IMG/VR virus record: IMGVR_UViG_3300036766_000184
Span: 23,864-87,863 of that record
DNA length: 64,000 nucleotides
Reading direction: 5' to 3' (one strand)
From: a virus
A program made the translations under genes and the position numbers. This document shows, in pieces, positions 1,949-29,099 of this stretch. How positions within the stretch are numbered: the first letter of the stretch is position 1; the number at the start of each line of letters is the position of its first letter. The notes beneath the pieces are model-generated. The model ran no database searches. It saw only the letters and a list, made by a program, of their open reading frames with translations, and was not told the DNA's origin.

Positions 1949-2992
1949 ATGAAGACCCTCACCCATCAGCTCCAGGCGGCCTACGAGGCCCTCGGCCTGC
2001 CCATCATCATGGGTGGGACGGACACCGAAGTCCTCACGGGCGACGCCGTCACCGTCAAGCGGTGGGCGAGTCGTCTCTGGGTCGAGATGCCCCGGTCGAT
2101 CTACTGGGCGAAGTTCATGAAGACCAACGACATGAACTCGATCATCGAGGTCAAGGAAGACCTGGTCGGCCAGCCCGGAGATCAGATCACCTTCACGCTC
2201 CTGCGCAAGCTGACGGGCGCCGGCGTGTCGGGTGACAACACGATGGAAGGCAGCGAAGAGGCGATGGTGCCGTATTCCGACACCGTGGTCCTCGATCAGG
2301 TCAGGAACGCCGTCCGGCTCAAGGGCAAGCTCTCGGAGCGCCGCACCGCATGGTCGCAGCGCAACGCGGCCAAGACCATCCTCCAGACGTGGATGGCCGA
2401 GACGATCGACGACGACATCTTCACCCAGTTCGACAGCTCCCCGTCGACCGCGCTCTACGGCGGCTCCGCGACCGCGACGGCCAACATCACGACCTCCGAC
2501 AAGGTGACCCCGAGTCTGTTCAACCGGGCGGTCGCCAAGTCCCGCAAGTCCATCCCGAAGATCTGGCCGGTGCGCCTGAACGGCAAGGACCTGTTCGTCT
2601 CGGTCCTGCACACGGATGTCGCGTACGACCTGGAGCAGGACTCGACCTGGCAGGCGTTCCAGCGTGACGCGGCGATGCGCGGGGACGACAACCCCATCTT
2701 CACCGGCATGAACGGCATGATCGGCGGCGTCATCATCCACTCGCACGAGAAGGTGCCGATCTCGACCACGTACGGCGCGGGCGGCAATCTGACCGGCGCG
2801 GCCAACTTCTTCCTCGGGAGACAGGCGGGACTGTTCGCTTGGGGTGAGCGTCCCAAGTGGTGGGAAAAGGAATTCGATTACGGGAACGCGACTGGATTTT
2901 GCATCGGGGCTACCTGGGACTTCACAAAGGCAGTGTTTAACAGCGTGGATCACGCTTTCATCAGTCTTCGTTCGTATAGAACTTCCGTCTAG
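1949..2992 (+). CDS. Major capsid protein (N4-gp56/DUF4043-like)
   Basis: VKRWASRL, GDQITFTL, GVSGDNTMEGSEE, DQVRNAV, NPIFTG, GVIIH, EEF/KEFDYGN-type motifs; strong RBS. Confidence 0.9.
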   Translation: MKTLTHQLQAAYEALGLPIIMGGTDTEVLTGDAVTVKRWASRLWVEMPRSIYWAKFMKTNDMNSIIEVKEDLVGQPGDQITFTLLRKLTGAGVSGDNTMEGSEEAMVPYSDTVVLDQVRNAVRLKGKLSERRTAWSQRNAAKTILQTWMAETIDDDIFTQFDSSPSTALYGGSATATANITTSDKVTPSLFNRAVAKSRKSIPKIWPVRLNGKDLFVSVLHTDVAYDLEQDSTWQAFQRDAAMRGDDNPIFTGMNGMIGGVIIHSHEKVPISTTYGAGGNLTGAANFFLGRQAGLFAWGERPKWWEKEFDYGNATGFCIGATWDFTKAVFNSVDHAFISLRSYRTSV

Positions 2993-3001
2993 AGAATCTT
3001 C

Positions 3002-3030
3002 TTGACTCTCACGATGGATGTTGCTAAGCT
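3002..3030 (+). promoter_or_regulatory. Promoter of the free-standing HNH-like gene
   Basis: TTGACT, 17 bp, TAAGCT. Confidence 0.5.
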
Positions 3031-3074
3031 GCCCTCCATGGCCAGCGCTACTGGCGGCCATGGAGGAGTCAGCG

Positions 3075-3656
3075 ATGGAAGAGGAGAGAACCAAACGATG
3101 CGGTGTTTGCAAACTGGACAAGCCGCTCTCGGCCTTCTACGCCAAGCCAGGCGTGAAGGACGGACGGATGTCGAAGTGCAAGGACTGCCAACGTCAGTAC
3201 GTGCAGGGTCGCTACAACCGCATCCGTCCGGTGTGGCCCGAGGGTCACAAGTACTGCCCGCGATGCAAGCGGGTATTGCTGTTCGCGGAGTTCGACAAGA
3301 ACGCGCGCCGCGGAGATGGCTTGCAGACCTACTGCAAGACGTGCTGGCCGGAGTACCAGAAGTACTGGCGCAAGCGGCCCGAGGCGGGCTTCATGGCGAC
3401 CGAGAAAATCAAGCGGAGCCTGAAGACTCCTGTCGGCGCGCTCAAGGCTCGGGCACGTCAACTCACCGCGCTGGCCATTCAGTTCGGCCACCTCGTGCCT
3501 GCGCCCTGCGAGGCCGACGGGTGCGGAAGCCTGGATGTCCAGGCGCATCACACGCAGTACGAGAAGCCGCTCGACGGGATTCGCTGGTACTGCGAGAAGC
3601 ACCACTTGGACGTGGGCCACGGCGGTCAGTGGACGAATCCGCCGGTGGGCGCCTAA
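3075..3656 (+). CDS. HNH-like endonuclease with two N-terminal Zn-finger repeats
   Basis: KRCGVCK..F..DG...CKDC and KYCPRCK..F..DGL..YCKTC; C-terminal CEADGC...AHHTQYEKPLDGIRWYCEKHH. Confidence 0.75.
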   Translation: MEEERTKRCGVCKLDKPLSAFYAKPGVKDGRMSKCKDCQRQYVQGRYNRIRPVWPEGHKYCPRCKRVLLFAEFDKNARRGDGLQTYCKTCWPEYQKYWRKRPEAGFMATEKIKRSLKTPVGALKARARQLTALAIQFGHLVPAPCEADGCGSLDVQAHHTQYEKPLDGIRWYCEKHHLDVGHGGQWTNPPVGA

Positions 3657-5769: not shown

Positions 5770-7347
5770 ATGTGGGATGATACGCAGGATCTGAAGATCG
5801 TACTTGGGCGTGAGGGTTTTTTTGGTCTCCGGCAGCGCGACAGAATAGCGTTGGGCGGCCTCGTCACTCTTCGTAACGCCACCCTGGAAGACAACACGCT
5901 GCGCACCGTCGGGGGGGCCTCGAAGTTCGGCATCCCCGTCACGGGCGCGCCGCATGTCTTGGGCTGCCACGATTACTGGGAAGACCCGATCACTCAGCGC
6001 AACGTCGTGATGGGGTCCGATGGCAAGCTCTGGGAAGACGACGGGGCGGCCGGGGCGTGGGCTGATGTCACCGGGGCGCTCGGTGCGCTGACCGTGACGG
6101 GGGCGGTGCCGCACTTCTCGGACGGTGGGAAAGAGACCACAGGGCTGAGCCGGGCTCTGTTCTACGCCGATGGCGTCAACGCGCAACGGGTCCGGCGCGG
6201 GTCCGGGGCCTTCGCGGCCTTGACCAACCCGGCCCCTGAGTGGGCGGGCACGAACCGGCCCCGCGGATTCTTCATCAACCAGCAATACAACTGGGCTTTC
6301 GGCAACCCGAGCTTCCCGCACCACCTGATCCGGTCGCTCGACACGAACCACGAGAACTTCACCGCGACCCCGTTCGCGGCGCCGATCTTCCCCGGTCAGG
6401 GGCTCTACATCTCGTGCTGCCTGGACTTCAAGGGCCTCATCATCGTGTGGAAGTTCCCGGAAGGGGTCTACGCCTACGACACCCGGGACGCCGATTCCTC
6501 GAAGTGGTACGCGGTCAAGGTCGGGTCCGGTGGGTGCCCGAGCCCGACCGGGGCCGAGGTGGTCGAGAACGACGTGATCTGGGTCGATCTCACGGGCGGC
6601 CTCCATCTGCTATCGGCCGTGCAGGAAACGGGCTCGGTCAAGGCCGAGGATCTGTCCTACAAGAAGTTGTCCCGCTACATCCCGGACAAAATCAGCCGGC
6701 CGATGCTGACGCGGTGCCAGTTGCGCTACAACCCGGATCGCCAGAAAGTCGTCCTGGCCTGTGCCGCACAAGGGTCGACCACGCTCAACCGGCGACTGAC
6801 GCTGGACTACAACAACAAGGCCGAGGTCGGCGAGCGCTGGATCATCGAAGACCGGGATGTCAACGAATCCCTCTTCATGCGACGCGACGCAGCCGACAAC
6901 GTCCTCAAGCCGATCATGGGCGATGACGTCGGGCAGCTCTGGAAGCTCGACACGGACGCGCGGACCAAGGACGGCGCGGGTTATACCTTCGAGTGGTGGA
7001 CCGCCGACTCGGATTTCTCGCAGCTTGCGCCGACCTTCATGGGCAAGTCGATCAACGGGGCCTATATCCAGTTGGTCTACGATCCGCGCGGCTCGGTCGA
7101 TCACACGATCCGGGTCTGGCGGGACGGGACGATGCGCCAGTCGATCCCCTTCACGCTGAGCGGCGGGGACAACACACTCCCCTTCGTGTTCCCGATCGTC
7201 TTCGGGGCTTCCACGATGATGGCGACGCGGAAACGTCGGTTGCTCGGGTCTGCGCGCCGCTGGGCGTTCCAGGGGTTGTCGAGCGCGACGGGCGCGGATG
7301 TGTCGATTGCGGGACTGATCCTCGGGTTGCACGTTGGGCGGGAATGA
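5770..7347 (+). CDS. Putative tail nozzle / DNA stabilisation protein (P22 gp10 / tubular B-like)
   Basis: 525-aa beta-rich protein with GCPSP..AEVVENDVIWVD..G.H.L and LSYKK motif; synteny. Confidence 0.75.
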   Translation: MWDDTQDLKIVLGREGFFGLRQRDRIALGGLVTLRNATLEDNTLRTVGGASKFGIPVTGAPHVLGCHDYWEDPITQRNVVMGSDGKLWEDDGAAGAWADVTGALGALTVTGAVPHFSDGGKETTGLSRALFYADGVNAQRVRRGSGAFAALTNPAPEWAGTNRPRGFFINQQYNWAFGNPSFPHHLIRSLDTNHENFTATPFAAPIFPGQGLYISCCLDFKGLIIVWKFPEGVYAYDTRDADSSKWYAVKVGSGGCPSPTGAEVVENDVIWVDLTGGLHLLSAVQETGSVKAEDLSYKKLSRYIPDKISRPMLTRCQLRYNPDRQKVVLACAAQGSTTLNRRLTLDYNNKAEVGERWIIEDRDVNESLFMRRDAADNVLKPIMGDDVGQLWKLDTDARTKDGAGYTFEWWTADSDFSQLAPTFMGKSINGAYIQLVYDPRGSVDHTIRVWRDGTMRQSIPFTLSGGDNTLPFVFPIVFGASTMMATRKRRLLGSARRWAFQGLSSATGADVSIAGLILGLHVGRE

Positions 7348-7361
7348 GAGGGGTGATCGCT

Positions 7362-8516
7362 GTGAGACGGATCGGACTGGTACTCGGCCTTATCATGGCG
7401 CTCGCGCTCGGTGTCGCGGGGACCGTGTCCGCAGGAAACTGCGGGACGTATTCCACGTACTCCACCGGGTCAAGTTTTGGCGCCGCCGACATCAACGGCA
7501 TCCAGATTCTCCTGGGCCAAACAAACATGACGCCACTCTGCGTCTCGCCATACGCGGCCACCGCTGGCCAGATGCAGACGACGACCGACCCCTATCCCGC
7601 AGGGGCCGTGAGCCTGCCCACGAGTCTTCAAGGCGAACTGACCGGCCTCCGCCACGTCATCAAGCAGCTCACGGGCTGGACCTACTGGTACACCCACACG
7701 GACGACTTCACCCGGAACGCGACGTGGAACACGCTCGGGCAGAGCTTCTGCGCGTTCTGCGTGAACATCACCGACACGGCGAGCCATCCGATTTCTAGGT
7801 TCATCGACCTCGTGATCGTGGGCACCGGCTCGAAGTTCTCGGTCGACAAGGCCGGGAATACGGTGATCGGCGGGACGTTGGCGCTCACAGGCGCGTTCAC
7901 GGGCACGATCCCGGTCACGGCATTCAACAGCGGCACCGGCGCGTCGGCCTCGACCGTCCTGCACGGCAACAGCACGTGGGGCGCGGTCAATCTCGCCTCC
8001 CAGGTCACCGGCAATCTTGGGGTCGCCAACCTCAACAGCGGCACCGGAGCATCCTCGGCGACCTTCTGGCGTGGTGACGGCACGTGGGGCGCGGCGGGCG
8101 CGGCGGTCGTCCAGATCAAAAGCGCGACCTATTCAACGGCGGGTACCGCGACTGGAACGACGCTGACCGATAGCGGCCTCTCGGTAACCATCACGCCGAC
8201 GAGTGCCAGCAATAGCGTGCGCATCACGGCGGTCCAGAACGGAGTCAGCGTCAACACGGCGGGCCAGTGGGGGCTCTTGAGGCTCCTGCGGGGCGCGGGC
8301 GTCATCGCGTCCACGCTGCAATACGGCGGCTCAATCGCGACCGCCTTCGGGTCGGTCACGGTTGTCATCGGCCCGTACTGTGATAGCCCGGCCACCACTG
8401 GGGCCACGACCTACAAGACCCAGTACGCGGGCAGCGCGGGCGGGGTCAGTATCTCTGTGCAGGACTCATCGTCGACATCGTTCATCGTCGCGGAAGAGGT
8501 GACCTCATGTTCGTAA
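7362..8516 (+). CDS. Tail fibre / receptor-binding protein with N-terminal signal peptide
   Basis: Fibre motifs GTGASASTVLHGNSTW and GTGASSATFWRGDGTW; C-terminal VVQ...GLSVTITPTSAS...DSPATTGATTYK domain; N-terminus MRRIGLVLGLIMALALGVAGTVSA (alternative start 7344). Confidence 0.8.
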   Translation: MRRIGLVLGLIMALALGVAGTVSAGNCGTYSTYSTGSSFGAADINGIQILLGQTNMTPLCVSPYAATAGQMQTTTDPYPAGAVSLPTSLQGELTGLRHVIKQLTGWTYWYTHTDDFTRNATWNTLGQSFCAFCVNITDTASHPISRFIDLVIVGTGSKFSVDKAGNTVIGGTLALTGAFTGTIPVTAFNSGTGASASTVLHGNSTWGAVNLASQVTGNLGVANLNSGTGASSATFWRGDGTWGAAGAAVVQIKSATYSTAGTATGTTLTDSGLSVTITPTSASNSVRITAVQNGVSVNTAGQWGLLRLLRGAGVIASTLQYGGSIATAFGSVTVVIGPYCDSPATTGATTYKTQYAGSAGGVSISVQDSSSTSFIVAEEVTSCS

Positions 8517-8845
8517 TACTCGCGCTCGCCGTGCTGTTCGTGACCACGCCCGCGTGGGCGCTCGATGCCAAGGCCATCGCAACGACGATCACGGGCCAGT
8601 GCCCGGACGCCGAGTTTTCCTATCAAGGTGACGGGTCCTCGCTCGGCGCGCACACGGCGGCGAACGGCGACAAGGCCACGGGGCTCACATGGATCGCGTC
8701 ATCGACCTGTCCCACGAGACCGACACTGGCTGAGATTCAGGCGTGGGCCGCCGCGAAGCCAGCCCCGGAGAAGATCGCGGATCGTATCGAGGCTGCCAAG
8801 ACGTTGAACGACCTGAAGGTCATCCTCAAGGAGCGCCTGAAGTGA
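8507..8845 (+). CDS. Putative tail-fibre chaperone/adjunct (XkdW-like) with signal peptide
   Basis: PDAEFSY..D...LTW......RPTLAEIQAW pattern seen after such fibres; N-terminus MFVILALAVLFVTTPAWA. Confidence 0.65.
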   Translation: MFVILALAVLFVTTPAWALDAKAIATTITGQCPDAEFSYQGDGSSLGAHTAANGDKATGLTWIASSTCPTRPTLAEIQAWAAAKPAPEKIADRIEAAKTLNDLKVILKERLK

Positions 8846-9096
8846 TGAGAATGGTGCTCCTCTCGGCCCTCGCGGCTATCCTACTGGTCGTGGGTGCCGC
8901 GCAGGCGCAGGCCCCACCGGCGGGGTCGACGTGCGAAGGTAAGCTCGAAGAGCAGTCGATCATGCTGCAAGCGGTGTCGGCGGGGCGGATTCGGGCCGAG
9001 GCCGAGAGCGCGGTGGAGATCGCCCGACTCCGCCAGCAGGTGCGGGAACTGGCCAAGAAGCTGGACGACGTTGCCCGGACGGGCAAGGGGAACTGA
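8845..9096 (+). CDS. Small exported coiled-coil protein
   Basis: MRMVLLSALAAILLVVGAAQA signal peptide; C-terminal heptads. Confidence 0.65.
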   Translation: MRMVLLSALAAILLVVGAAQAQAPPAGSTCEGKLEEQSIMLQAVSAGRIRAEAESAVEIARLRQQVRELAKKLDDVARTGKGN

Positions 9097-10863
9097 GTGG
9101 CTGACGACGAACTCGACTTCAACACGTTCGGGCAGGACAGCAACGCCGGGAGTGTCGATCAGCTTGAATCCGCGTTCCAGCAGCAGCACGCCAACAACGC
9201 CGACAACTTTGTCACCACGATCCCGTCGAGCACGAACTTCTCCCTAACGCGACCGGACGGAACGACGGTCTCCCCCGCCGACTACTCGTTGATGGTCGGC
9301 AAGCTTGCGGTCGCCCCGGAGATGCAGGGTCTCGTGGTCGACAAGGCCGGGAACGTCTTGAACTCGGACGGGACACCGCTCAATCCATCTCAGAAAGATG
9401 GGCTACTCAAGACCCTCGGGAGCTTCTTCGACTCCTCCACGGGGCGCCTGATCGGTTCTCTTGCGCTCGGGGCGGCCGGGATGGGCCTCGGCAAGCTGGT
9501 GGCGGGTCCCGGCGGTACTCTCACGCTGCCCTCGACCACGGCGGGACAGAACCCGGTCGTCGCCGCGGCGCAGCCGCAGTTGCTCGCCTCGCTGGCCGGT
9601 CAGGGCGGGGCCGATCTCAAGTCGGCCCTCGATGCGAACTTCGCCGGGCAGAAGACCCTCGCCTCGGCCTCCACCGAAGACATCGCGCGCGCGAGTGCCG
9701 CCAACGCCCAGATCGAGGCACAGTCGGCCCCACTGCGCTCTCTGGCTGCGGCAAACCTCCCCGGCTATATGACCGGCACGGCCCCCCACCCGTCTGCGGC
9801 CTACGACGCCACCACGAGTGCCGCGATGGCCCAGATGGAGAAGCTGCTCGGCCTGCCGACCGGCACGCTGACGGGGGCTGGCGCTGCGGCGGGCGGCGGC
9901 GGCATCACGGACGACCAGTTCACCGCGAAGGGCATCTTCGATCCCGGACTGCGCAATATCATCAGAACGGATCCGACCGAAGCCTACAACTACGGCCTCG
10001 GCCCGAACCCTGCGACGACGCCTGGCGCGGCCGACACGACCGCCCCGGCGGGTGTGACCCAGGACTCGCTGCTTCCGGCCATCACGGACAAGCTCAGCAA
10101 GACGATGGCTGGCGGCCCCGCAGCCTACTACAGCGCGGACCCGGTGCAGGCCCAGATGGCAGCGCGGCTTCAGAACGCGCTCGCGGGAGGGGAACTGGAC
10201 CCGGCGACCGAGCGCAGCATCCGGGAACAGCTCGACATCCTGCACAACAACCTCAAGCGGGCCTACGGGGACGCGGGGGCCGAGTGGAACTCGACGGTCG
10301 GGCAGAGCCTCGCGGCCAAGAGCGCCGAGTCGGTCGCGGCCCTGCGGTACGGAGTCAACCGAGATGTCGTGAACTCGCTCGGGCCTCAAGAGCAGGCGCG
10401 CCGGACCTTCGCGATCACGAACCCGCAGAATATGTACCTGGCCGATCTCGGGTTCTACGGGGGCCAGCAGCAGCAGCGCAGTCAGTTGCCGGCCGCCGAG
10501 ACCCGGGCCCTCCTGGCGCAATACTTCCCCACGGTCGCCCAGAACGCGGCCTTCAACGAGAACGCCCGTCAGGTGAACGTGGCCCAGAACGCCGCGATCA
10601 CCGGACTCAATCGCCCCACGCTGGCGACCGGCTCGAACGCGCTCGGGAACCAGATCACCTCGTTGTCGCCGCTGCTCGGTGTCAACGAGCCGAACGTGTT
10701 CCCGACTCTCGCGGCGGCGAGCACGAGCGCCTTCAATGCGCAGCAGGCCGCCGATGCCGCGCAGGCCAAGAGCATCGCGGACATCTTCGGCAACGCGGCG
10801 GGCACGCTCAAGCCCGCCACGAACGTCACACTGGCGCCGACCGGCACCGGGATGTTCTCCTAG
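9097..10863 (+). CDS. Internal virion (ejection) protein
   Basis: 588 aa, Ala/Gln/Gly-rich helical with a glycine-zipper segment; first of three increasingly large genes. Confidence 0.7.
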   Translation: MADDELDFNTFGQDSNAGSVDQLESAFQQQHANNADNFVTTIPSSTNFSLTRPDGTTVSPADYSLMVGKLAVAPEMQGLVVDKAGNVLNSDGTPLNPSQKDGLLKTLGSFFDSSTGRLIGSLALGAAGMGLGKLVAGPGGTLTLPSTTAGQNPVVAAAQPQLLASLAGQGGADLKSALDANFAGQKTLASASTEDIARASAANAQIEAQSAPLRSLAAANLPGYMTGTAPHPSAAYDATTSAAMAQMEKLLGLPTGTLTGAGAAAGGGGITDDQFTAKGIFDPGLRNIIRTDPTEAYNYGLGPNPATTPGAADTTAPAGVTQDSLLPAITDKLSKTMAGGPAAYYSADPVQAQMAARLQNALAGGELDPATERSIREQLDILHNNLKRAYGDAGAEWNSTVGQSLAAKSAESVAALRYGVNRDVVNSLGPQEQARRTFAITNPQNMYLADLGFYGGQQQQRSQLPAAETRALLAQYFPTVAQNAAFNENARQVNVAQNAAITGLNRPTLATGSNALGNQITSLSPLLGVNEPNVFPTLAAASTSAFNAQQAADAAQAKSIADIFGNAAGTLKPATNVTLAPTGTGMFS

Positions 10864-12617
10864 TGGCCGCACCGTTCTCGGTCGCCTACCCGAGTGCCGG
10901 GAACGCGGCGGGGTCGCAGTTCGTCGACAGCTACCTGCGCGCGAAGTCACTCGCGATCCAGGAGCAGAACGCGGACGCGCTCAATCAGTACCGGGCGCTT
11001 CAGATGCAGGAGATGCAGGAGGCCGCTGCCCGCCGGGCAGGGGACGAGCGCGCGCTGTCAGCGGTTGCCAATGCCCCGACGGGTCCGATTACGCTGGCGT
11101 CCGAACAGCGCACCCCCGGCGCGATCGTAACCCCCGCATCGCCGGGCACCATGGCCGCCGAGGTCCCCGACGAGATGGGAGTCGCGCCGCCGATCTCGAT
11201 GGCCGCGACGAACCCGACCGCGGAAGTCCGTGCGCCCGATCAGGTCACCCCAGCCATCACGACGCCGGGGATCGCCATGTCGGACATCACGAAGTCGCTC
11301 GCGGCCGATCCGAAGGCTCTCGCGGGTCTCGCAACCCCGCAGGCCGCGGCCCTCATGAAGCAGCGCGGCGTCCTGTCGAGCGCCGACATCGAGCGCAAGA
11401 AGAACCTCGCGGATGCCAAGACGGAAGCGATCGGCTACCGGGACCAGATCCAGGAGATGATGAGCGGTCGCGACGTGGACCCGATCAAAATCGCGCTCAC
11501 CCGGAAGGCGTACCACGAGAAGGCCGCGATGGTCTACGCCGAGAGCGATCCCGCGCAGGCGCGCGAGCATCGTCAGGCGGCCGAGGCGTTCATGACCGAG
11601 GCGATCGGACTCTCGAACAACAAGCACGAGAATGATCTGGCGCGGGACGATCTCCGGTCCTTCAACGCCGCCGTGACGAAGTTCGACACCAAGGGCGGCA
11701 ATACCCCGGAGAACATGAGCGCGGTGCTCGACGCCGTGGCGGACTTCCAGAGCAAGGGCTTGGGCGCGACCCGGACGGCGTTCATCAACCACAAGCTGAC
11801 GAACATGATCGCCTCGATCCAGGACCCGGCCTACAAGGAGTTCGTCTCGGGCGTCGTGCAGAGCATGAACGCCCAGACCGGCACGCAGGATCTCCACAAG
11901 GCGTTCCTGGCTCAGAGCCTGATCGACCCGGACACCATGACGCGCATGATCGGCGACAAGGGGCACTTCGGGGACTGGGCCCGCAAGGCACTCTCACCGG
12001 ATCGGACGCTGAGCCTGAGCGCAGTCGGGGTCGCCCAGAAGCGAGTGGACGCGGAGATCGCGGCCGGGAGTCGGCCGGGCGTCGAGCAAGGGTCGGCCGC
12101 CTACTGGAAGCTCGTCAGTCAGTTCGCGCAAGAGGGTGTCAACGCCCGCGATGCGAGCCGTCACGACGACGCTGAGCGCCGACGCAGCCTCCAGCTTTAT
12201 GACCGGGAAATCGCGATCCACAAGAGCGAACTGGGGCGGATTCGTGCCGATCTCAAGGCCATTGAGAAAACCCCCTACGCCGAGCGAGCGGCGCGGCGCA
12301 AAGAGTTGACCGAGCGGGAAGCCGAAGCCGACCGGCTGCTGAAAGAAGCGGAGAGCGGCCTCGCGGCATTCAAGAAGACGGCCGAGCCCACAGACTCAGG
12401 CGAGCGCGCCGACCTTGAGCAACAGGTCAAGGACGCCAAGGGCTCGACGGCCGCGTCTGCGCAAGGCACGGCGGCGGCGACCTTCGAGTCGGCCCCGCCC
12501 GCGTCCAAGAAGGCGGCCGTCATCGCCATGACGAACGCGCTCTTTCCGAAGCGCACATGGCCGCAGTTGAACGAACAGGAGCGGACGACAGTTCTCGGTC
12601 GCCTCACGGGCCGCTAG
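10863..12617 (+). CDS. Internal virion (ejection) protein
   Basis: Helical Ala/Glu/Lys-rich; GTG start overlaps upstream stop. Confidence 0.7.
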   Translation: MAAPFSVAYPSAGNAAGSQFVDSYLRAKSLAIQEQNADALNQYRALQMQEMQEAAARRAGDERALSAVANAPTGPITLASEQRTPGAIVTPASPGTMAAEVPDEMGVAPPISMAATNPTAEVRAPDQVTPAITTPGIAMSDITKSLAADPKALAGLATPQAAALMKQRGVLSSADIERKKNLADAKTEAIGYRDQIQEMMSGRDVDPIKIALTRKAYHEKAAMVYAESDPAQAREHRQAAEAFMTEAIGLSNNKHENDLARDDLRSFNAAVTKFDTKGGNTPENMSAVLDAVADFQSKGLGATRTAFINHKLTNMIASIQDPAYKEFVSGVVQSMNAQTGTQDLHKAFLAQSLIDPDTMTRMIGDKGHFGDWARKALSPDRTLSLSAVGVAQKRVDAEIAAGSRPGVEQGSAAYWKLVSQFAQEGVNARDASRHDDAERRRSLQLYDREIAIHKSELGRIRADLKAIEKTPYAERAARRKELTEREAEADRLLKEAESGLAAFKKTAEPTDSGERADLEQQVKDAKGSTAASAQGTAAATFESAPPASKKAAVIAMTNALFPKRTWPQLNEQERTTVLGRLTGR

Positions 12618-12618
12618 T

Positions 12619-15600
12619 ATGGCCGTCACCATCCGCGACATCGACGCGCTCTTCGACGAAGAGCCGAAGAAAGACAGCGCGGCCTCAGCGCCCGCCACAA
12701 CCCCGGCAGCACTCGCACCGCCCATAACGACGGTCGGGGACATTGACAAGCTCTTCGCCGAGTCGCCCGACGATTCAGCATCGACCTTCCCCGCGAGCAC
12801 GCCGGAGATCAGGCAGGCCGAACTCGACCGGAACCTCCGCGACATCAAGGCCGGAAATGTCCCGCCGACCATCCAGGCCCCGATCGCCGCGGTCGATCCT
12901 GCGACGGGTGTCCCGCTCGACATGCCATCCCCGACACCACCCGTGACATCGGGCGAACCCGGCATCCTCACGCGCCTCGGTCGTGCCGCGCGCAACGTCA
13001 TCATGGGCACGCCAGCCGCCGCCCAGCCCGCGACACGTGATGGCTCCGGGGGCGTCATCGAGCCGCCGCCGAGTCAGGCTGAGGTGCGCGCGACCGCGCC
13101 GGGTGGAGGGCCGTTGGTCACACCACCTCCGGCGACACCTGCGGTCACTACGCCGATCGTCTCAGCGTCTACGGTGCCGGCGCCTCCTGCCCAGCGCTCA
13201 TCCACGCAGCCGGTGTTCACACCACCCGCACCCGTGACGCCGGAGAATCCTCTTCCCGAGTGGGCGGTCGAGCGCAATAAGATCACGCCGACCCCATCCA
13301 GCGCTCCCGTCATCAACTCGGTCAGGGACCTCGCGCCTCATGTCGCCGATCTTGTCGCGCCGCCGATCAATGCACGTCCCGCTATCGAGGATGCTGGTCA
13401 GCAACTCGACGCCTTCAGGGCTCGACTTGACCAGGAGCATACGGCCCTTGTGGCGGAGCGGTCTGCGCTGAATGCTGCGCGCGCGAGCCTTGAGTCGCGC
13501 CTCGGGCAATCACGAGCCCCAGGAGCACGAGCGGCCATCGAGGCTGAGGTCGCCAGCTACAACGAGCGCGAGGGGGTATTCAGCCAGCGCAGGGGGGCCT
13601 TCGGAATTGCCGCCGAGAGTTTCAACGCTCGCGCGGATAGGCTCAGGGCGCTGGACAAGGACGAGTCGTCGCGTGGCGGGATCGTTGAGCGTGGGACGCG
13701 CGCCGCCGTTGAAGCGCAGCGCAGCGGCATCAGTCGAGCAGCGCAAGCCGTCACCTCGCTGGGCGAAATCCCCTTGTACGCGGGGCCGGGCTCAACGAGC
13801 GAGCGGGTCAATGTCCCCAATATCGTCTGGCAAGCCTCCCTCAATCTCGCCAACGGGCTGTTGCAGGCCGGCGCAGCACCAGCCATTGGCGTTGGAGCGG
13901 CGGGCCGGGCGGCCCTTGAAAAGGCAGATCCAGAACTCGCGAGCACGACGCTTGTCGGCGACGACGCGACGGCGCGTGGCATCCGACTCGGATTGATGCC
14001 GACAGAAATCCCCGTGGATCGCACCCCCGAGGAACACGCCGCCCTTGGTGCGCCGATCACCGTCGGGGAAGCCGTCGAGATCCTCGGTGCCCTCGGCACG
14101 ATCATGGGTATCGGGCGCATCGCGTCGAGCAACACGCGCTACGTGATTAACTGGGGTCGGCCTGGCCCGAGGTTCGGTCGCATTGAGCCGATGAAGGCCC
14201 TGCCACCAGCGCCACCCGAGGCGCTCTCAGGCGTGGTCGCTCGCCCTGAGCCGGTCGGTCCATCTGGATCAGCCCCCACCATCGACCTGACCGTGACACT
14301 CGGCGACATCTCGTCTGCCCGCGCGGGCAAGGCGAATCTTGCTGAGTCACTGGCGGATGCAGCGGTCAGCCGACTCAAACCGCTCCCCGCGGAATGGGAT
14401 GCCGGTCGCCGTGTCTTCACGCTCACGGAAGACATCCCCGGCCATGCCCGCGGTGATGTCGTCAGCGCAACACAGGCCGCAGCGGAGGGCTATGACCCGT
14501 TGCGCCTTGCCGCGCGGACCAGCGCGACGCCGACCACTCGGCCGGTCGCTACAGCGGCGCGTCCTGAGCCGATCCTCATCGAGTCCGAGCCAGCGGCGGC
14601 TGGGTCGGGGCCGCTTGCGCCGGCCGCAGAGGCAGCGAAGGCTCGGCTCGCGCAACGGGCACCGACGCCACCGTTCGGGCCATCAGAACCACTCGCGTCC
14701 ACGGCCCCCGTCACCACCGAGGACATCGACGCGCTCTTCGTACCGCCCGCCAGAAACGAGCCGGAAACGACCCCCGAGTCGGCCGATCTCAAGCCCGCGC
14801 CATCGTTGACATCGCCGGGAAATCAACGGGGCGCCATGACTCCGCTCACTCCCGAATCGGTGGCCGCCGCGCTGGAGGATGCGAACGGCAACTACATCAC
14901 GGCTGCGGAGGCGCTCGCCGGGAGCGACAACCTCCTGAGCGTCCTGAACGCGGCGAATCAGGCCCGGAAACTCTCGCCCGAGTTCAACGACGCGATGGGC
15001 AACCGGCCCCGCACGGGCTCGATGCTCAAGGTGGAACGGGACCGGCTCGCGCAAGAAGACCGCGGCGGATGGGACCTCAACAACGACAACGACCTGATCG
15101 CCTTCGTGAAGAGTAAGGGGGGTATCCGACCGGACCCCGGCGGGGACCTCTCCGAGAAATGGGAGGCGATCCCGAAGGAACTGCGGAGCAAGACCAAGGG
15201 GCTCACGCCGTCGCAGATGGCGGAAGTCGTCAACGAATCCCTCGGACGCGAGCGCAACACGAATGTCATCAACGACGCGGAGATCCTGCGCCGCTTGTCG
15301 AAGTCGACGGTGCGCGGCGGAGCGCGCGGCCAGCGTGAAGAGGTTGACCGTGCGCAGGCCGAGCAGGAACGTCAGGCCGCCGATGCCCACGCGCGCTTCA
15401 TGGACATGCCGGAAGCCGAACAGATCGCCGCGCTTCGTGATATGACCGGGGCCTCGGAGGCGGATGCGCGAGCGCTTCTCAAGGCCCGACAGGATGCCGC
15501 GAGGCCCGTCGAGTTCCTGTCCGACAAAGACGAACCGACCGGCGAGAAGGGCGCGCTCGACAGGGCGCTCCTCGAAGGCTTCCTGGCAGGACCGGAACGG

Positions 15601-18600
15601 GAGCCGCGCGAGATCATCCGTGAGGTGCTCGATCAGGTCGGCGGCCACGAGGCGGTCGCCAAGGGGATGTTCGGCGGCGATATAGGCGAACTCGACGCCT
15701 TCGTGCGCCGTGTCCATGCGGAGGCGGTGGAGTCGAGCAAGGCGATGGAGCCGAGAGCGCCCTATGGTGGTCGCGGCACCTCCTTGCCCGCGCGGGCAAT
15801 GTTTCGCGGCGTCAAGGCTGGCCGAGATCCTCACGCCATCGAGGGCACCATCGGCGGCACGACATTCTCGCCTGACGAAAAGGTGGCGCGCGCCTACGCG
15901 GGCGAAGACGGTCGTGTTGTGCGCGAGAACCTCGGATTCAAGAATCTGCTCGCGGCCAAGAACTGGATGGAGGCTAAGCGCGCACTCGAACTCCCCGCAT
16001 CGGCGACCATGCCAGAGCTGATCCGGGCGGCGAGTGACGCTGGGCACGACGGTCTCGCGTTTCAGGGCGCGCACGGGCAGGAGTACATCAAGATCCCATC
16101 CAAGGGACCAGAGCCCAAGACCGAGAAGACCCCACTCGGCGATCAGGTCTTGGTCCCCGACACCCCCAAGCGCTCGATCCCCACCGGGAAAGCCAAGGCC
16201 CGCGTCGAGCAGCGCCCCTTGGACTCGACGCCGCTGTTCGGACAGGACAAAGCGGAACGAGATCGGAATTCCGACGACGCGCAGGGGATGCTTCTTGAGG
16301 ACCGCGCGCCGTTCCAGGCACAGGAGAAAGCGGCCAAAGCTCAGGAGAAGGCCGCTGAGGCGCTCACGAAAGCTGCTGGCGCGATCAAGGATGCGGCCGA
16401 CGAAGTGCGGGCGGCCGTTCCCGAGGCCCCGAAGCCCGCGCCGGTCACGTGGGGCGGCTGGCAGGAGCGCTTCAACAAGGAGCCGCTGCCGCTCTGGTCT
16501 CTGACCCAAGACATCCCCGGCCACCCGAAAGGCTCTACGGTCGGCCCCCAGGCGCTCCAGAAGGCGGGATTCGAGGTCCCCGAGCCCCCGGAAGCGGCCC
16601 CGACCGGCGCATCGCCGTACAAGTACTCAAGCGTAGAGATCCGACTGCCGGCCGGGATCGGAGACGCGGTGCGCCGGTTCGCGCAGACGATCCCGCAAGA
16701 TCAGTTGGCGCCGAAGGGTGTCGAGGCGGTGTCTCACGTAACCGTTCGTTATGGCATCCAAAGCTCAGAGCCCGACCGGATTAAGGACGCGCTCAAGGAT
16801 CAGGGCCCCGTCGAGATCACGCTCGGCACGGTCAAGAGCTTCCCGGACACCGGCGACGGAGAAGTCCTCTACGTGGAGGCCCAGGGCCCGGCGGTCGACG
16901 CGCTCCACGAGCACCTGACGGACGCGCTCGTGACCGTCGACACCCAGAAGACGTTCAAACCTCACGTCACCCTCGCCTATTTGAAGAAGGGCGAAGCCAA
17001 GGCCCACGTCGGCGACACCAGTTTCGTCGGCCGGACCTTCACGGCCTCCGAGGTCGTGTTCTCGCCGCGCGATGGAGCGGAGCCTACGGTACTGGCCTTG
17101 CCCGGGCGGGCAGTGGAGCCAGCCACCGAAGCGCCGCGTGTGTCAGACACACCATCCGGTGTGCTAGACACACAGCCGCCGACCGCCGTCAACGAACCAG
17201 TCGCCCCCTACACCACGGAGCCCGCCCCGGCTTTCTTCTCCGCACTCCGTGACGCAGCCGACAAGCGTCTGCCCGCGCGGGCCAGCGCCGAGCAGATCAT
17301 GGCGACCATCCGGGCGACCCCAGGCGTCAAGGCCGACGAGATCACCTGGACCTACCTCCCCGAGTGGTTGGCCGAACAGAAAGGCCCGATCGCCAAGGCG
17401 GACGTGCTGGCGTATCTGGACGACTACGGCGTCAAGGTGCGGGAAAGCCTGCGCGGGCAGGGAGCGGGGAGCGATCCGGGCCAAGAGGCATTCCGTCGAG
17501 CGTTCGAGCCCGCCGCGCCCGGCGAGTACGCGCGCACATTCCGCGACCTGATCGAGCCGCTTGGCTACCACCCGGAGCATGCGTCCTCGGGGCCGGGCTA
17601 TCTCGTCATCCGCGCCGCGCCCATCGTCAATCCGGAAGTGGGCCTGGACGAATTGAACCGACGGATGGATCTGCTCGAAGCCGAGCGCGAGCCTGCCTAT
17701 CGGGCCGCACACCGTCTCGGCATCATCGACACGCGCAGTGAGGCTGAGGACATGGAACTCGCCCGCCTCACACAGACCTTGACGATCATCGACGGACAGG
17801 AACAAGAGATCGACGACCAGATTCAAGAGGTCGTTGACCGGGATCGTCCGCGCTACTTCACCATCCGCGCTGAGGGCCGCGTACTGCTCAACGACGACGA
17901 GGGGGCCGCCGACTTCGATGAGGCTGTCGTGAATGCGTGGCGTGACCAGGAGGATCGCGCAGGACGCAGTACCACACCGAACGCCAATCTCTCGCCCGCC
18001 GAGTACGAAGGCTACAAGGCCGTCAGAGGCGGTGAGAGCTACCGCGAGCTACTGTTCCTCTATGAGAGGCCGCCAACAGAGCTTGACAAAGAGATTCGTG
18101 CGCTCTCGCGGGGCAGGGGGCGACCGGGCTCAGGCCATGACGATGCTTTCTCGATACAACCGGAAGACCAGCCACGCTTGGACGCGCTGCTCAGCCGTCG
18201 TGTCGGGCTACCCCGCCATGTTTTCCGGCCCCCTCACTTCCGCAACGCCGAGGACATGATTGCGCATGTCCGATTCGATGTCCGCACCGACGCCGACGGC
18301 CGGCGCGGACTCCTGATCCAAGAGGTGCAGGACGACCTCGACAACCAGATCCGCAAGCGACAGGACAACTTGAAGTCGATGGAGCGCGCATTGCCGGATG
18401 TCGCAGAAGGAACGCCAGCGCGACCCGGACTAGAAGGAAACATCGCGGACGCGAAGACCGAGATCGCCCGCCTCGAAGCCCTTCTCCCCTTCCGGGGCGG
18501 CAAGTCGAACGAGTTGGTGATGAAGCGCGTCCTGCGTTTTGCTTCGGAACAGGGCTACGACTTCGTGGGGTTGGCGACGGGCGCGCAGCAGGCGGAATTG

Positions 18601-21600
18601 TACAACCTCTCGACGCACGTCAAGCGGATCATGCTCTACGACGCCAGCGGCGGCATCAGCGTGCCCAAAGATGGACCGTTCGTAAGCGGGATGTTCGTGG
18701 CGACCCCGCGAGATCGCGGACAACAGATTGAGCGCCGCATTGACTTGGCGCAAGACCCAGAAGCGCTGAACGATCTCGTCGGCCCTGAGATGGCGGCGCG
18801 ACTCCTGGCGCGTCCGTCTCGCGTGGGCAACTGGGCTGGACTCGGCGCGCGTATCCGTTCGCTGGAAGATCTGGACCTCGAAATGCCGAGTAAGCAAGCG
18901 CAAGGCAAGAAGAAGACCTACGACGAGATCCTCCTCGCCGTCCTGAACAAGCTGGCGAAGCCGTGGGGACAGAAGGTGGAGGATCGGTACCTGAAGGCTG
19001 ATGCGGGATCTCGGACGATGGCGAATGATGACGCTGGTTCCGCAGCGGCGATCGGCGCCGCGCCCATCCACGCTATCGCCATCACCCCCGAGATGCGCGA
19101 GGCCCTCCTGCGTCACGGCTTCCCGCTCTTCGAGGACCGCGCGGCCTACGGGGCACTCCCCGCTGAGGCCAAGGTCGCCGCTGACGCTCTCAACGCGCAG
19201 GACATCCGCAACAACCCCAACTTTACAAGGTGGTTCGGAGCCTCGAAGGTGGTGGACGAGAAGGGCGCCCCGAAGGTCGCCTACCGCGGCGACAACCGCG
19301 CGGATCGCCTCGACCGTCTCCGCAAGGCTCGCGCGTCCAGCGCGCATGGGTTCTTCTTCACCGAAGACCCGGCCATCGCGTCGAGCTACGCCACGGGGAA
19401 GGTCGACCGGAACGCGGTCGACGACGTGATGGAGGGCGAGAACTTCCGCAACTACTTCCGATTCACGCGCCCCGGCGTGCGCGGCACGATCAACCTGCAC
19501 GATCTCTGGTATCACCTGAGTCGAGCCGAGCAAGCGCGCGTCGAGGACGTGGTACGCAAGTCGGACTACACGGAAGAGCAGCCGGACGGCACGGTCGGCC
19601 CGCGCTACTGGGACTTCAGCGGCGAGCGTAGTGTGCGCGATCAGGCTGGATGGGATTACGAGATTCGTGACAACCGAGGCAACGTGCTCGACGCAGCGGC
19701 CTCGACCTACTTGGGCGGCGCGATTCTGCACGGCGATGGTGACGAGGCGCTCTTCCTCGATCTCCTGAAAGAGGCCGGGATCGAGGGCGAGTACGTCGAC
19801 CCGTGGGCGGAAGCCCCCGCCGTCACACCGGTCTATCTTGCGATCCAGACTCCGCTCGATACGGCGGCAATCCCACCGGCCGTGGTCGACCGACTCCGAG
19901 CCGTCGCGCGCCGCTCACGCCGTCAGCCGAAAGAGGGCTACGGCGACCCGTGGAACATGGCGGCCATCACGCCGAAGGTGTGGATCAGCGAGCTTGAAGA
20001 CAACCTGACGAAGGGCACGACGACCGCGTGGACCTCGATCCCGAAAGAGATCGTGCGCGCGCTCCAAGGGCTCGGCTACGACGGGATCAAGGACACGGGC
20101 GGGAAGATGGGCGGCCAGCCCCACGCGGTCTGGATTGCGTTCGAGCCGACGCAGGTCAAGAGCGCCATCGGGAATCGGGGCACGTTCGATCCGTCGAGCC
20201 CGTCACTGGTCCGAGAAGAAGCGACGCCCTACGCCGAGTTGCCCGCCCGGGCAGAGCCAGCTCCCGCGTTCTACTCGACGCTCCTCCAAGCCGCCGAGAA
20301 GCGCCTGATGCCGAAGATGTCCCGCGCTCAGGTCCTCGGGGTACTCGGGTCCACGCCGGGCGTCAAGAAGATCGAGATCCACTGGACCGGCCTTGAGGCG
20401 TGGCTCGCCGGCCAGCCCGAGGTCGGGATCAAGAAGACGGACGTGCTCGACTTCATCCGGGCGAATCAGGTCCGGGTGGCGATCAGGGAGTTGAGCGAGG
20501 CGACCTCGGAGACCGAGCAGCGACGGATCGAAGCAGAGTCCGGCCTCGATCTCTCCGAAGAATACGGAGGCATGGGCAGCTTCGACTCCGCGTGGGACGA
20601 GGTGCGCGCGCTCGACCCAGATCCTGAGTACGTGAAGGAGATGCGCGCCGAAGACCCGGACTGGGAGCCGAGCGACGAGGAGATCGAATACCGCTCGTCT
20701 CATCCGGCCGGGTACGAGGTGACCGGGAATCGTGAGAGCGGTTTCTCGGTCTGGGTCCCTGATGCGTCTAAGGGCGTCGGGCGCAGGGGCGTGCGCGATG
20801 ACGGCGGCGTCCAGTTCGATCGCCTCGACGCCGCACAAGAAGCCGCTGGCTTAGACTACTTCAACTGGCTTGAGAGAGCGGCTGACGATGGGGCCGCTCC
20901 TCGTCACGGCGAACACGTCGAGCCCGGCGGTCTCCCCGGCACCTATCGGGAGCGGCTGTTCGTGTGGCCGCCGGAGACGCTGGAGCCAGCGCCGACATCT
21001 CGAAGCCTGTGGCGCGAGAAAGCAGAGCAGGTCGCAGGCGAGAACGGCATCGAGCAGCCGCACCTGCTCAGCGATGCCGCTCTTCGAGAGCGTGTGGGCG
21101 AGATGGCCGCACAGGAGGACGTGAGCGCTGTTGATCGGCCTCGGCGCGACGACACGCTGTACGAGCCCCCATCTTCCCACTTCGATCAGCCCAACCTGAT
21201 CGCCCACGCGCGCCTGGACGACGGGACGCTTGTCGATGGGACGCCGGTGCTGCGGATGCAGGAAGCGCAATCCGACTGGCGGCACGCCGTCCTTTCCGAA
21301 GGCGAGCGCACCCCCGAGCCGCCGCCCGTCCTGACGGAGTTGCCGGAGGGGTACAAGGTGGAGTCGGCTCCGAGTCAGGTGGTCGAGCAGGGTGCCGGGA
21401 AGTTCCGCTATTCACCCGTCACGAAGGTCCTGTCCCATGTAGGGCCAGAGGGTCAGGAGTGGCGTCGCGACGGTGTCGAGCCGATCAACCTGGGCCTTTT
21501 CATGGACGAGTTCACGGCCGGCAAGCTATTCGACCGCCTCGAAGCCATCGGCGTCCTCAAGAAAACCCTCAGAAAGAGGTCCTGGGTCGTCCGTCAGCCT

Positions 21601-24600
21601 GACGGGGTCGTGATGGTCAGAGCCGAGGCGACGGCGAGTCGCGCCGAAGCGGTCAAGCGCGCCGTGAGCCAACTCAACCGCGACCGCCACAACGCCTGGT
21701 CCCGCGCCGTCCCGCCCTTCCCCTGGTTGAAGAACTGGCTGGAACTGGTCATGAAGGACGGGATCAGCGAGGCGGCCCGGACGGGCAAGCAGTGGTTCGT
21801 CTGGACGACAGGCAAGCAGCAGGCCGAGCGGTGGAGCCAGAAGGTCACCGAGAACATCGCGGCGGTGCGGTATCACAAGACGGGGCACTCGGACGGCCCC
21901 GCCGATTGGGTTCTCGACGGGTGGAGCGCCAAGCGATCACAGAAGCGCGAGGGCGAATGGCGCGACCCCGATGTCGTCCAGCGCGTCACCCCCGATGAGT
22001 TGCCGAACTACGTCGGCAAGGAACTCGCCCAGAAGTTGATCGCGGCGGACGGGGAGGTGCTGACCGGCCAGGATCTGACGTTCGGAGGTTCTGAGTTTCG
22101 CGCCATCTACGACACCATGGCCCTCTCTTTCGCGCGCGCGTTCGCCAAGCCGTTCAAGTCGCGGGTGGAGGATGTGCAGGTCAACACGGCGCCGACTGGC
22201 AACCCGCGCGTGGGCATGACCATGCACGGCATCTCGATCACGCCTGAGATGGTGTCCACCGTCTTGACCCACGGCCTGCCGATCATGGAGCCGCGCGCCC
22301 CGTTTGCCGCCGTCCCTGAACCACGCTATCCTCTCCGCGATGGAGCCGACCGGACGAAGAGCTACGCGCTCTTCCACGAGGCGGCGCGTGAGCAGTTGGA
22401 TCTGTTTGGAGGGAACCGTGGGGAGCCAGGGAAGCAAGCGGAAACTCAGGCTGTCGAACCGGCGATCCCGGCTGCGCAAGGTGACACCGGAAGAGCTGGA
22501 AACGCACGCGCGCCTGTTCGTGCATCCCAGCCCGCCCTACGGGGATTCGACGCCGGAGCCGGAGTCCGCACTCTCGCCCTTGCGCTTGCCCGCGACCTCG
22601 CCAACCTCGGCTACGTCTCCCTCCGCGGCTACCGAGTAAGCTCCGCCGAAGAACTCGGCCCCCTCGCGCAGATCTGGCGCGATCCGCGCTACGAAACCTT
22701 CCGCATCGTCTACGTGGACGACGCGGGCACCATCCTCGCCCATGAGGCCATGACGTCTCGGAGCGCCGGAGCCGCAGAGGCGTGGAAGCCTGACGACGAC
22801 GTGGACGACTGGATCGCCACGCGCCGCGTTCGGATGGCGAAGATGGGCGCGACCGGATACTACCTGCTGCACAACCACCCAACGACGGCCCCGATCCCGT
22901 CACGCGAGGATCGCGCGCTCACGACCAGAATCTCGCGGGCGCTGACTGGGTTCAAAGCACACGTCATCATCGACCACGGGAGCTTCGGCATCCTCCGCCC
23001 TGACGGGACTGAGGTCATGCGTCCCGTGACGGCGCAGCCGGATGCGCGCTACATCCCCGCCGTCCCGCACGACATTCTCGATGTTCAACTGACGAGTCCC
23101 CAGGATGTCGTGAGGCTCGGCAAAGCCATCGAGGTCCGCGACGGTTGGGTCGCGCTGCTCTACCGTGGCGCGGCAGGGCAGATCATTGCGGCTCAAGAAA
23201 TGCCACGGGCGCTGTTCCTTCACCCGACAGAGGCGACCAACTATCTACGCGCCCAAAAGAATAAGTGGGATGCCGACAGCATCTTTGCTTATTCATCCGT
23301 GCGCGGCGACGCTGCCGTGATCGCGGCGGCGCAATCCCTTGTCGACGATGGACGACTTCGCGATGCGTGGGTTGGCGCTCACGGCGCGGAGATTCTCAGC
23401 GACCGAGAGCGAGGCGTGCGCGCTAACGAAGATCTCGCGACCCGTCCTATCGTTCGCTTCGCAGAATCCGGCGCCCCCTACAACGACACGACCGACGAGG
23501 ATCTCCGCGAGCTGGGCCGGGCCTTCCTGACCGATCCACCAGACTACGAATCGTGGGCGGCGCAGATGCGGACACACGTGAGCCCGGCGTACTACGCGCG
23601 GCTGGCGAAGACGTATCAGGATCTCACCGCGTCGGCCTCGGATGTCCAGACGTCGAGCGCGCGCCCGACCGGCGTGCAGAATCCGGCCCAGACCGCCGCG
23701 GGCGATCTCAACGCCGCGCGCGGCATCCCACTGCCCGCCGGGCAAGCCCTCATGGAGCGACTGCACAAGATTCTCGACGTGCCGATCTCCGAGGGGCGCG
23801 TCGGTGGCGGGGCCGGGCGTCTCGGGTTCACGCGGCTCAAGGGCGGGCGTGCCGAGGCCGCTCGGCTCAAGGTCTCCGAGGATCTCTCGACGGCCGCCCA
23901 CGAGGCCGGACACGTCATCTCGGCGATCGTCTGGGGTGCCCGCCCCGGCGCGCGCGATGCCTTCTACATGCGCCACTCGCCTGACCTGATGCAGTTGGCT
24001 GAGGGGCACGTGACACCGAACCAGGAAGAGGGCTGGGCCGAGTTCTGGCGGCTCTACTTGCAGAACGCCGACAGCACGCGCGCGATCTACCCGGACCTGA
24101 CCCGCGACATTGAAGACGCGCTGGCTCGCGAGGATCAGCCGCTCCTATCCGCACTCCAGCAGTGGGGCGACGACTACCGGGCGTGGCGTGGATCTCGGCC
24201 CCGGGACCGGATTCGCAGTCACGTGGTCCGCGAAGTCGGCAAGACCCGTGACCTCCGCGGCACGCTGCGGCGGACCTACACCAACCTGCTCTGGGAAGGG
24301 GCCCCGCTGGACCGCGCGGTCAATACACTCGCGGCTGGGCACCCGCTGGGGCCCGAGCAGAATGCGAGCCTGCTCAAATCGGTCTTGGCCGGCGCCCCGA
24401 AGCTGGCCGAGTACTTCCTCTTCGACAAGAACGGCCACGGCGGGACCCTCGACTTCCACACACGCCAGGTGACCGGGCCGTCGCTGGAAGCCGTGCTCAA
24501 TCCCGTCAAGGCGACCTGGCAGGACTGGTCGGACTACATGATCGCCCGTCGTCTCCGGGAGTTGATGGGTCGCCCAGACGACAACGGCAAGCGCGCGGCC

Positions 24601-29088: not shown

Positions 29089-29099
29089 CAGGAGAACGT

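Follow-up and report, generated by a model that had tools for sequence, protein, structure and literature searches.

The gene cluster

The stretch analysed here (the window) comprises 64,000 nucleotides and corresponds to bases 23864–87863 of an 87,863-base viral contig (83% complete by the CheckV estimate, GC content ~65%). Three consecutive genes of its tail module, here named A, B and C, lie between a tail-hub-like gene and the genes of internal virion proteins. Each of the three begins with a segment resembling a Sec-type signal peptide (a leader). The first gene encodes a putative tail fibre, and comparison of its family suggests that this fibre is exported and probably matures outside the cytoplasm, the compartment in which tailed-phage particles are built. 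Coordinates are given in Table 1.

Table 1. Features in and around the fibre locus (positions refer to the window; aa, amino acids).
Feature	Position	Strand	Remarks
Capsid protein	1949–2992		PF13252 / phrog_334; 33–35% identity to capsids of Bcep22-like podophages
Tail-hub-like protein, 525 aa, leaderless	5770–7347	+	stop overlaps ATG of A
Gene A, tail fibre pre-protein (predicted)	7344–8516	+	390 aa from ATG 7344, 384 aa from GTG 7362
Sec-type leader of A (predicted), residues 1–30	7344–7433	+	predicted cut after ...VSA, 0–1 residue from Gly31
Conserved N-terminal anchor domain of A, residues 31–165	7434–7838	+	Cys33, Cys66, Cys136-x-x-Cys139 motif
Fibre repeat region of A, residues 212–255	7977–8108	+	two copies of the motif SGTGAS...W/L-R/H-G-D/N-G/S-TW
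C-terminal (distal) domain of A, residues 283–388	8190–8507	+	matches part of Pelagibacter phage HTVC026P (36% identity, E 6e-5)
Gene B, 112 aa	8507–8845	+	18-residue leader (8507–8560, ...TPAWA), two Cys
Gene C, 83 aa	8845–9096	+	21-residue leader (8845–8907, ...AAQA), Pro-rich linker, one Cys, helical tail, coiled-coil-like by eye
Three leaderless genes (588 aa, ~585 aa, 4873 aa)	9097–27240	+	position of internal/ejected virion proteins; order as in Bcep22
Putative holin-like protein with two transmembrane segments, then lipobox lipoprotein (...LTGC)	28648–29576	+	from sequences only; position after the giant gene, as in the Bcep22 lysis cassette

The start codon of A at 7344 and the stop of the upstream 525-aa gene share the sequence ATGA. 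The first-pass annotation had placed the start at GTG 7362, which is preceded by GAGGGG 8 nt upstream. From either start, the translation has a basic n-region (Arg), a hydrophobic core of ~15 residues and the residues TVSA immediately before GNC. The public gene call of A (P0004, 373 aa) begins at Met18, which halves the leader. Third-position GC backs the reading frames of A, B and C, the leaders included. The first-pass annotation had reported three consecutive genes with signal-peptide-like starts, a fibre motif with six cysteines in the first and two cysteines in the second. All of these open reading frames (ORFs) are present and the cysteine counts agree; the six cysteines of A are residues 33, 66, 136, 139, 364 and 389.

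A carries the fibre repeat ...SGTGASSATFWRGDGTW, and its repeat region matches parts of uncultured Caudoviricetes records at 72% identity. The repeat SGTGAS...FWRGDGTW is common among fibre-like matches. The HTVC026P stretch that matches the distal domain lies under features annotated as 'putative tail fiber protein' and 'hypothetical protein'. Among the 8000 candidates scored, 792 proteins match A at E ≤ 1e-3. Pfam and PHROGs gave nothing above threshold for A, B, C, the 525-aa protein or the 314-aa protein encoded before it, and PDB sequence searches with A, the 525-aa protein and the family profile were empty.

Leaders in the anchor-domain family

A phmmer search with residues 31–170 of A found 1184 cluster representatives at E ≤ 1e-3 and 207 at E ≤ 1e-10. 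Leader classes were counted on 150 listed matches, with the full-length A of the window in place of its shortened public call, and leaders were scored by simple rules of our own. The start of the anchor domain is contained in 134 of the 150; the other 16 match later parts of the query only. The 134 sequences divide into 85 leadered forms (18–44 extra residues with a hydrophobic core), 43 leaderless forms (0–4 residues before the domain) and 6 that are odd or mis-started.

Although varied in sequence, the 85 leaders share a common build. Their median length is 26 aa, and the n-region is net positive in 80 of them. The longest uncharged stretch up to the cut, c-region included, has a median of 19 residues (range 11–25). 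At a fixed site, one residue ahead of the conserved Gly, 74 of the 85 have small residues at -3 and -1; the rule holds for a cut 0–2 residues before this Gly in 83 (background 0.32 per position). In the window, A and C have Arg before the core, and the predicted cut sites end in VSA (A), AWA (B) and AQA (C). Pairs of arginines occur in 30 of the 85 leaders, but the hydrophobic cores are strong and the leaders short. A Tat signal was rejected, as the motif [ST]-R-R-x-hydrophobic-hydrophobic is found in three leaders only.

The leaderless forms begin where the leaders are predicted to be cut. All of those with one to three residues before the domain (41 of 43) consist of Met, then A, P, G or S, then the domain. 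Removal of Met from these forms and cleavage of the leadered forms by signal peptidase would thus yield the same mature N-terminus by both routes. No other single observation argues as strongly for a cleavable signal as this agreement. The first-pass annotation had regarded homologues starting downstream of the hydrophobic segment as evidence against export. There are 43 such homologues, but they begin at the predicted cut, and 85 others are leadered.

A mis-called start does not account for the leaders, since no ATG, GTG or TTG is found within 6 codons before the domain in 11 of the 13 leadered viral loci. In five leadered loci (L005, L007, L010, L011 and L028) the hub gene's stop codon is also the point where the leadered ORF begins, as in the window. 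An artefact of translating high-GC DNA was also rejected: the cores are free of charge, the cut site is fixed, the nearby start is missing in the same 11 loci, and low-GC members are leadered as well, L026 and several others having classical Lys-rich leaders.

Export of A by Sec is well supported, by comparison only. The proposal of the first-pass annotation is partly supported: the N-terminal segment of A shows all the sequence features of a cleavable Sec leader, the leader is conserved as a property across the family, and the leaderless homologues start at the predicted cut; export and cleavage themselves are predicted.

Two family members are unusual at this region. An A homologue, P0174 (L008:5800-6000), has a longer leader with a lipobox (...LLAGC), followed by a 17-residue linker and the anchor domain, and may be a lipid-anchored variant. 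In L003 (9965-10140) a stop codon lies just before the conserved Gly-x-Cys of the fibre gene. The next in-frame ATG, GTG or TTG is 46 codons downstream, with conservation at the protein level between the two. A frameshift, an assembly error or an unusual start are possible causes.

Fibre identity and linkage to the hub

A homologue of the 525-aa protein is encoded in the flanks of 78 of the 84 anchor-domain loci (tblastn), directly upstream of the fibre in every map read. In the Atlas, the 525-aa protein is assigned to a viral beta-propeller family (TM 0.83–0.89). In one of the matching clusters, 17% of the members are labelled PF11134 (Phage_stabilise), the family of the P22 hub gp10. The protein itself has no sequence match in Pfam, PHROGs or PDB. 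As the N-terminal module of the fibre travels with this beta-propeller hub-like gene, the N-terminal domain is read as a hub-docking anchor.

The distal parts vary. The leadered fibre of L011 contains Collar (E 2e-20) and Gp10_C domains, and that of L028 the second domain of Mtd (PF21916). Among 32 family members scanned, BppL_N, the Mtd second domain, End_tail_spike and Gly_rich_2 were each found in one. A constant N-terminal domain joined to varied receptor-binding distal domains indicates a modular receptor-binding fibre. On these sequence comparisons, the A family is a family of such fibres with a constant N-terminal module. The assignment of A as a tail-fibre-type protein, made in the first-pass annotation from the repeat, is thus strengthened by the hub linkage and by the distal domains of its relatives.

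A is the sole anchor-domain gene in the whole 87.9-kb contig, and the family loci likewise have one such gene per contig. A second, leaderless copy of the fibre on the contig was considered and none was found. The family was recovered from 81 viral contigs and from three contigs of 185,579 species genomes, all three being metagenome-assembled genomes (MAGs).

In many leaderless loci the anchor domain occurs after the hub gene as a stand-alone protein of ~105–110 aa (L004:3588-3905, L087:9965-10294 and ~20 further loci). The distal fibre parts would be separate genes in these loci.

Cysteines and phylogeny of the anchor domain

At 24 of the 90 columns of the anchor profile, leadered and leaderless forms have the same dominant residue (≥70%). 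Gly31, Cys33 and Cys66 are the only columns conserved (≥80%) in the leadered forms alone. By raw counts, 81 of 85 leadered forms have the Cys33/Cys66 pair, compared with 7 of 43 leaderless forms. This pattern fits a disulfide formed in an oxidising compartment and is not independent evidence for one.

In the tree of the domain, the leader state requires at least 10 changes on the best tree. The mean after shuffling is 36, and none of 500 shuffles was as low; supported branches force only two changes. Where the leader state changes on the tree, the cysteines are mostly unchanged. Leadered viral loci have a median GC of 0.66 and leaderless ones of 0.49. All nine loci with window-like capsids (43–62% identity) have a leadered fibre. 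By these comparisons the leader trait is the mark of a phage lineage.

Genes B and C

B starts with MFVILALAVLFVTTPAWA. Its one homologue, P0124 (49% identity), has kept the leader and has no cysteine. In the Atlas, B has a feature score of 0.86 to a cluster with XkdW on 72% of its members and TM values of 0.48/0.42 to a Phage_tail_APC cluster, which are below threshold. P0124 reaches E 0.056 against XkdW (PF09636), with 13.6 bits against a cut-off of 24.6, and B itself does not match the XkdW profile. The label 'chaperone', given to B in the first-pass annotation, is a guess from sequence.

C starts with MRMVLLSALAAILLVVGAAQA. In a near-copy of C, P0271, the leader has diverged at several positions yet is still hydrophobic, and the body differs very little. 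In L005 the leadered fibre is immediately followed by a leadered 98-aa ORF with 38% identity to C over 69 aa (E 9e-5 in a single comparison); it shares with C the Pro-rich linker, the single cysteine and a similar helical tail. No BLAST alignment was obtained between C and a 79-aa ORF of L006 of C-like build, or between B and an ORF of L012. C and the coiled-coil fibre chaperone gp57A of T4 are presumably alike only in size and predicted helicity. C was also considered as an i-spanin. This was rejected, as no lipobox ORF lies within or beside C and the lysis-like genes are 19 kb downstream.

Partners of this kind accompany other leadered fibres. By a simple rule (at least 60 aa, start at most 300 nt after the fibre), a leadered ORF follows the fibre in 8 of 13 leadered loci and 1 of 68 leaderless fibre genes, a contrast that is confounded by GC (0.66 vs 0.49) and that includes the doubtful case of L028. 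The co-occurrence of leaders on fibre and partner, which the first-pass annotation had put forward as a check, is thus present in the counts, with these two reservations. The ORFs behind leadered fibres vary and include C-like helical proteins, a Laminin_G_3 protein in L009 (E 2.6e-18) and others without assignment.

Proposed maturation of the fibre

The best explanation, to which we give about an even chance, is that A is a hub-docking fibre that is exported by Sec and cleaved, matures in the periplasm and attaches to the particle at lysis. A would be a receptor-binding tail fibre whose first 135 mature residues dock on the hub encoded upstream. The host translocon would export the pre-protein, and signal peptidase I would cut it 0–2 residues before the conserved Gly-x-Cys. 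The cut fibre would then have the same mature N-terminus as its leaderless relatives after Met removal. Folding and trimerisation would take place in the periplasm, where the Cys33/Cys66 pair, and perhaps the CxxC motif, would probably be disulfide-bonded. B and C may be small partners, translated together with the fibre and likewise sent to the periplasm; helper or chaperone roles are plausible. The leaderless head, portal, hub and internal proteins would assemble in the cytoplasm. With the fibre exported and the other parts cytoplasmic, fibre and particle could come together only once the inner membrane is lost at lysis. The comparison shows the sequence features and their conservation, the agreement with the leaderless N-termini, the linkage to the hub gene and the single copy of the anchor domain. 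That the fibre is exported, cleaved and disulfide-bonded, when and where it joins the particle and what B and C do are what we infer.

A wider form of this proposal is held more tentatively and is rather doubtful: a widespread lineage of uncultured short-tailed phages, mostly of high GC, might use two-compartment assembly. DNA-filled, hub-bearing particles would form in the cytoplasm, and fibres and helpers would be exported by Sec, folded oxidatively in the periplasm and joined at lysis.

Several points weigh against export and periplasmic maturation. The rules used for leader scoring are not a trained signal-peptide predictor. The n-region of B has no basic residue and a net charge of 0, and the same holds for P0124. 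An in-frame GTG (7425) lies three codons before Gly31 of A, and a leaderless isoform is possible in principle. The association of leader and cysteines comes down to two independent pairs on supported branches (sign test, p = 1) and is inseparable from shared ancestry. Moreover, seven leaderless forms keep both cysteines and four leadered forms have none, so that export and disulfides are not strictly coupled. The contrast in leadered ORFs behind the fibre is weakened by the difference in GC, and the ORF of L028 looks like an internal protein. The idea of a two-membrane host comes from an unannotated lipobox gene and from the bin labels of the three MAGs, of which one is leadered (L085, binned as Alphaproteobacteria). 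Finally, the hub, a leaderless family member and the anchor part of a leadered member have no match in 50,697 GenBank phage records; the module is thus known only from uncultured phages.

An unlikely alternative is that the exported proteins build no virions. They could mask receptors in the envelope (for superinfection exclusion or for protection of progeny from debris) or act as free decoys or adhesins, and any fibre on the virion would derive from a minor part of the protein that stays unexported. Small receptor blockers, secreted or of the lipoprotein type, are known to be encoded beside receptor-binding genes (Llp of T5, Cor of T1-like phages), and at least five further leadered late genes outside the tail module fit a broader envelope-directed programme. 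However, the hub-docking anchor is conserved at the same 24 columns, is linked to the hub and is single-copy; a pure decoy would need none of this. The anchor domain of leadered forms is under the same constraint, which suggests that the exported fibre still has to bind the hub and favours a virion fibre over a pure decoy. A lipoprotein-type receptor blocker was rejected, as A, B and C have no lipobox. In addition, A is coupled to the hub gene by the ATGA overlap.

The hydrophobic segment could instead be an uncleaved signal-anchor that tethers the fibre, and B and C too, to the inner membrane on its periplasmic side, either for good or up to the time of lysis. Membrane-tethered phage lysis proteins of the signal-arrest-release (SAR) type are a precedent, and the Bcep22 cassette is annotated with a SAR endolysin. 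Uncharged stretches of at least 24 residues occur in 8 of the 85 leaders, and B lacks a basic n-region. The median stretch of 19 residues argues against a signal-anchor, as does the small-x-small site, which lies at a fixed distance in 74 leaders and at the point where the leaderless homologues begin. An uncleaved anchor would have no cause to retain this site, and we regard this alternative as improbable.

An ordinary cytoplasmic fibre would result if the leader were unused in vivo, either by translation from the domain edge (GTG 7425 in the window) or because the leader remains as a cytoplasmic pro-peptide. GTG 7425 is in frame, but it is preceded only by GGGGA at 2–3 nt, which is poor spacing, and 11 of 13 leadered loci have no comparable start codon. 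The public call P0004 starts inside the leader, and in L003 a stop codon closely precedes the domain and a leader is missing altogether. High-GC DNA can yield translations rich in Ala, Leu, Val and Arg; against this, the third-position GC coding signal runs through the leader, and charge-free cores with a fixed cut are found in 85 diverse sequences, low-GC ones included. We give an unused leader a low probability.

That A is a bacterial-style surface fibre carried as phage cargo outside the virion, like the signal-peptide fibre adhesins of Bdellovibrio, whose layout (Caulton et al., PMC10769870) matches that of A, is highly improbable, since A lies inside a structural operon and overlaps the hub gene, since the family comes from 81 viral contigs against three MAG contigs of 185,579 species genomes, and since the anchor is common to leaderless fibres of viral contigs.

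Comparison with known systems

Morphogenesis of tailed phages is taught as a cytoplasmic process. The tailspike gp9 of P22 resembles A in its context, as there is a P22-type portal, a hub-like gene just before the fibre gene and an N-terminal docking domain with a swappable distal part. In P22 the spike is the last part to join and can also be attached to heads in vitro, which makes the late joining of a fibre physically plausible. In contrast to A, gp9 has no leader and folds in the cytoplasm, and it has no sequence similarity to the anchor domain by the PDB sequence searches. The link of the 525-aa hub to P22 through PF11134 is a label on 17% of one cluster only.

The leaderless family members (L004, L016, L029) have the same N-terminal domain, the hub upstream and variable distal domains. 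They differ in that Met and a small residue precede the domain, in the cysteines (36 of 43 lack the Cys33/Cys66 pair) and in median GC (0.49 vs 0.66).

Phage lysis proteins exported by Sec or as SAR proteins (endolysins, spanins, the T4 antiholin RI) are late proteins that pass through the host Sec system before lysis, and the Bcep22 record annotates a SAR endolysin and spanins. Unlike A, they are lysis factors and not virion parts, and none joins a cytoplasmic particle. The g3p and g8p proteins of filamentous phages are virion proteins with cleavable leaders, and g3p is disulfide-bonded in the periplasm. The filamentous particle, however, is extruded at the membrane, with no cytoplasmic capsid, tail or lysis.

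Late genes of tailed phages have been reported to carry Sec-type signals. The record of Bcep22 notes for gp70 'contains potential signal peptide'; this gene lies among those of internal proteins, lacks a basic n-region and is unrelated to A. In Porphyromonas phages, as far as the available text goes, signal peptides are described on capsid proteins (where they are taken as cut by the prohead protease), spanins and unknown genes, and not on tail fibres (Matrishin et al. 2023, PMC10367356). Outside phages, the mosaic adhesive trimer fibres of Bdellovibrio have a signal peptide, a conserved N-domain of ~130 aa and a phage-like fibre with variable tips (Caulton et al. 2024, PMC10769870). These are chromosomal genes of a predatory bacterium whose products are displayed on the cell, and the likeness to A noted here is one of layout. 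In the literature searched, no published description of Sec-leadered tail fibres of tailed phages was found; the gene list in Supplementary Data 4 of PMC10367356 could bear on priority.

If fibres of this kind are indeed exported, a large family with export signals would mean that assembly involves a second compartment, and the question becomes when and where the last assembly step occurs. To fold, such receptor-binding proteins would have to be expressed in a periplasmic, Dsb-competent setting. Gene callers shorten the starts of these fibres, as with P0004, and the fibres would be put in the wrong class by tools that separate "virion" from "secreted/moron" phage proteins. Work on the host range of uncultured soil and sediment phages would need to reckon with an export step.

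Genomic context

The phage is an uncultured, short-tailed phage from sediment. The contig sequence is present in one public DNA run, a sediment metagenome that is probably its source; no RNA run is listed. The portal, encoded upstream of the window, is of the P22 type (PF16510, E 9e-89). The late operon has the order capsid, HNH/EndoVII-like, 258-aa, 104-aa, 314-aa and 525-aa proteins, A, B, C, 588-aa, ~585-aa and 4873-aa polyvalent proteins. Head, portal, hub and internal proteins are leaderless.

The two-transmembrane-segment protein and the lipobox lipoprotein behind the giant gene have no family match. The lipobox gene is an indirect hint of a possible two-membrane host.

The HNH/endonuclease VII-like gene (3018–3656; phrog_2340, E 1.9e-23) lies directly 3' of the capsid gene within the structural operon. 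The 4873-aa polyvalent protein (12619–27240) contains LPD38, two ART-PolyVal stretches, a 2H phosphoesterase and a RadC-JAB domain, and its place is that of the giant DarB-like protein of Bcep22.

The further leadered late genes of the contig outside the tail module number at least five and include a 725-aa fibre-like protein. Four consecutive genes with Sec-type leaders lie upstream of the window, between a terminase-like gene and the portal gene (L084:2850-7786, contig bases 10849–15785). They encode a 119-aa protein, the Cys-rich 725-aa fibre-like protein, a 246-aa protein and a 540-aa protein with DUF1996 (E 3.8e-21).

A TnpB-like gene with OrfB_IS605, Cas12f1-like TNB and HTH domains is located at 49931–51118. 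By eye, the N-terminus of an ORF at contig bases 7627–8829 resembles that of the TnpB-like protein. Finally, a 439-aa multi-span membrane protein (62347–63666) shows a weak match over the whole profile to Wzy_C, the O-antigen ligase/polymerase family (E 0.0035; 17.6 bits against a cut-off of 31.7).

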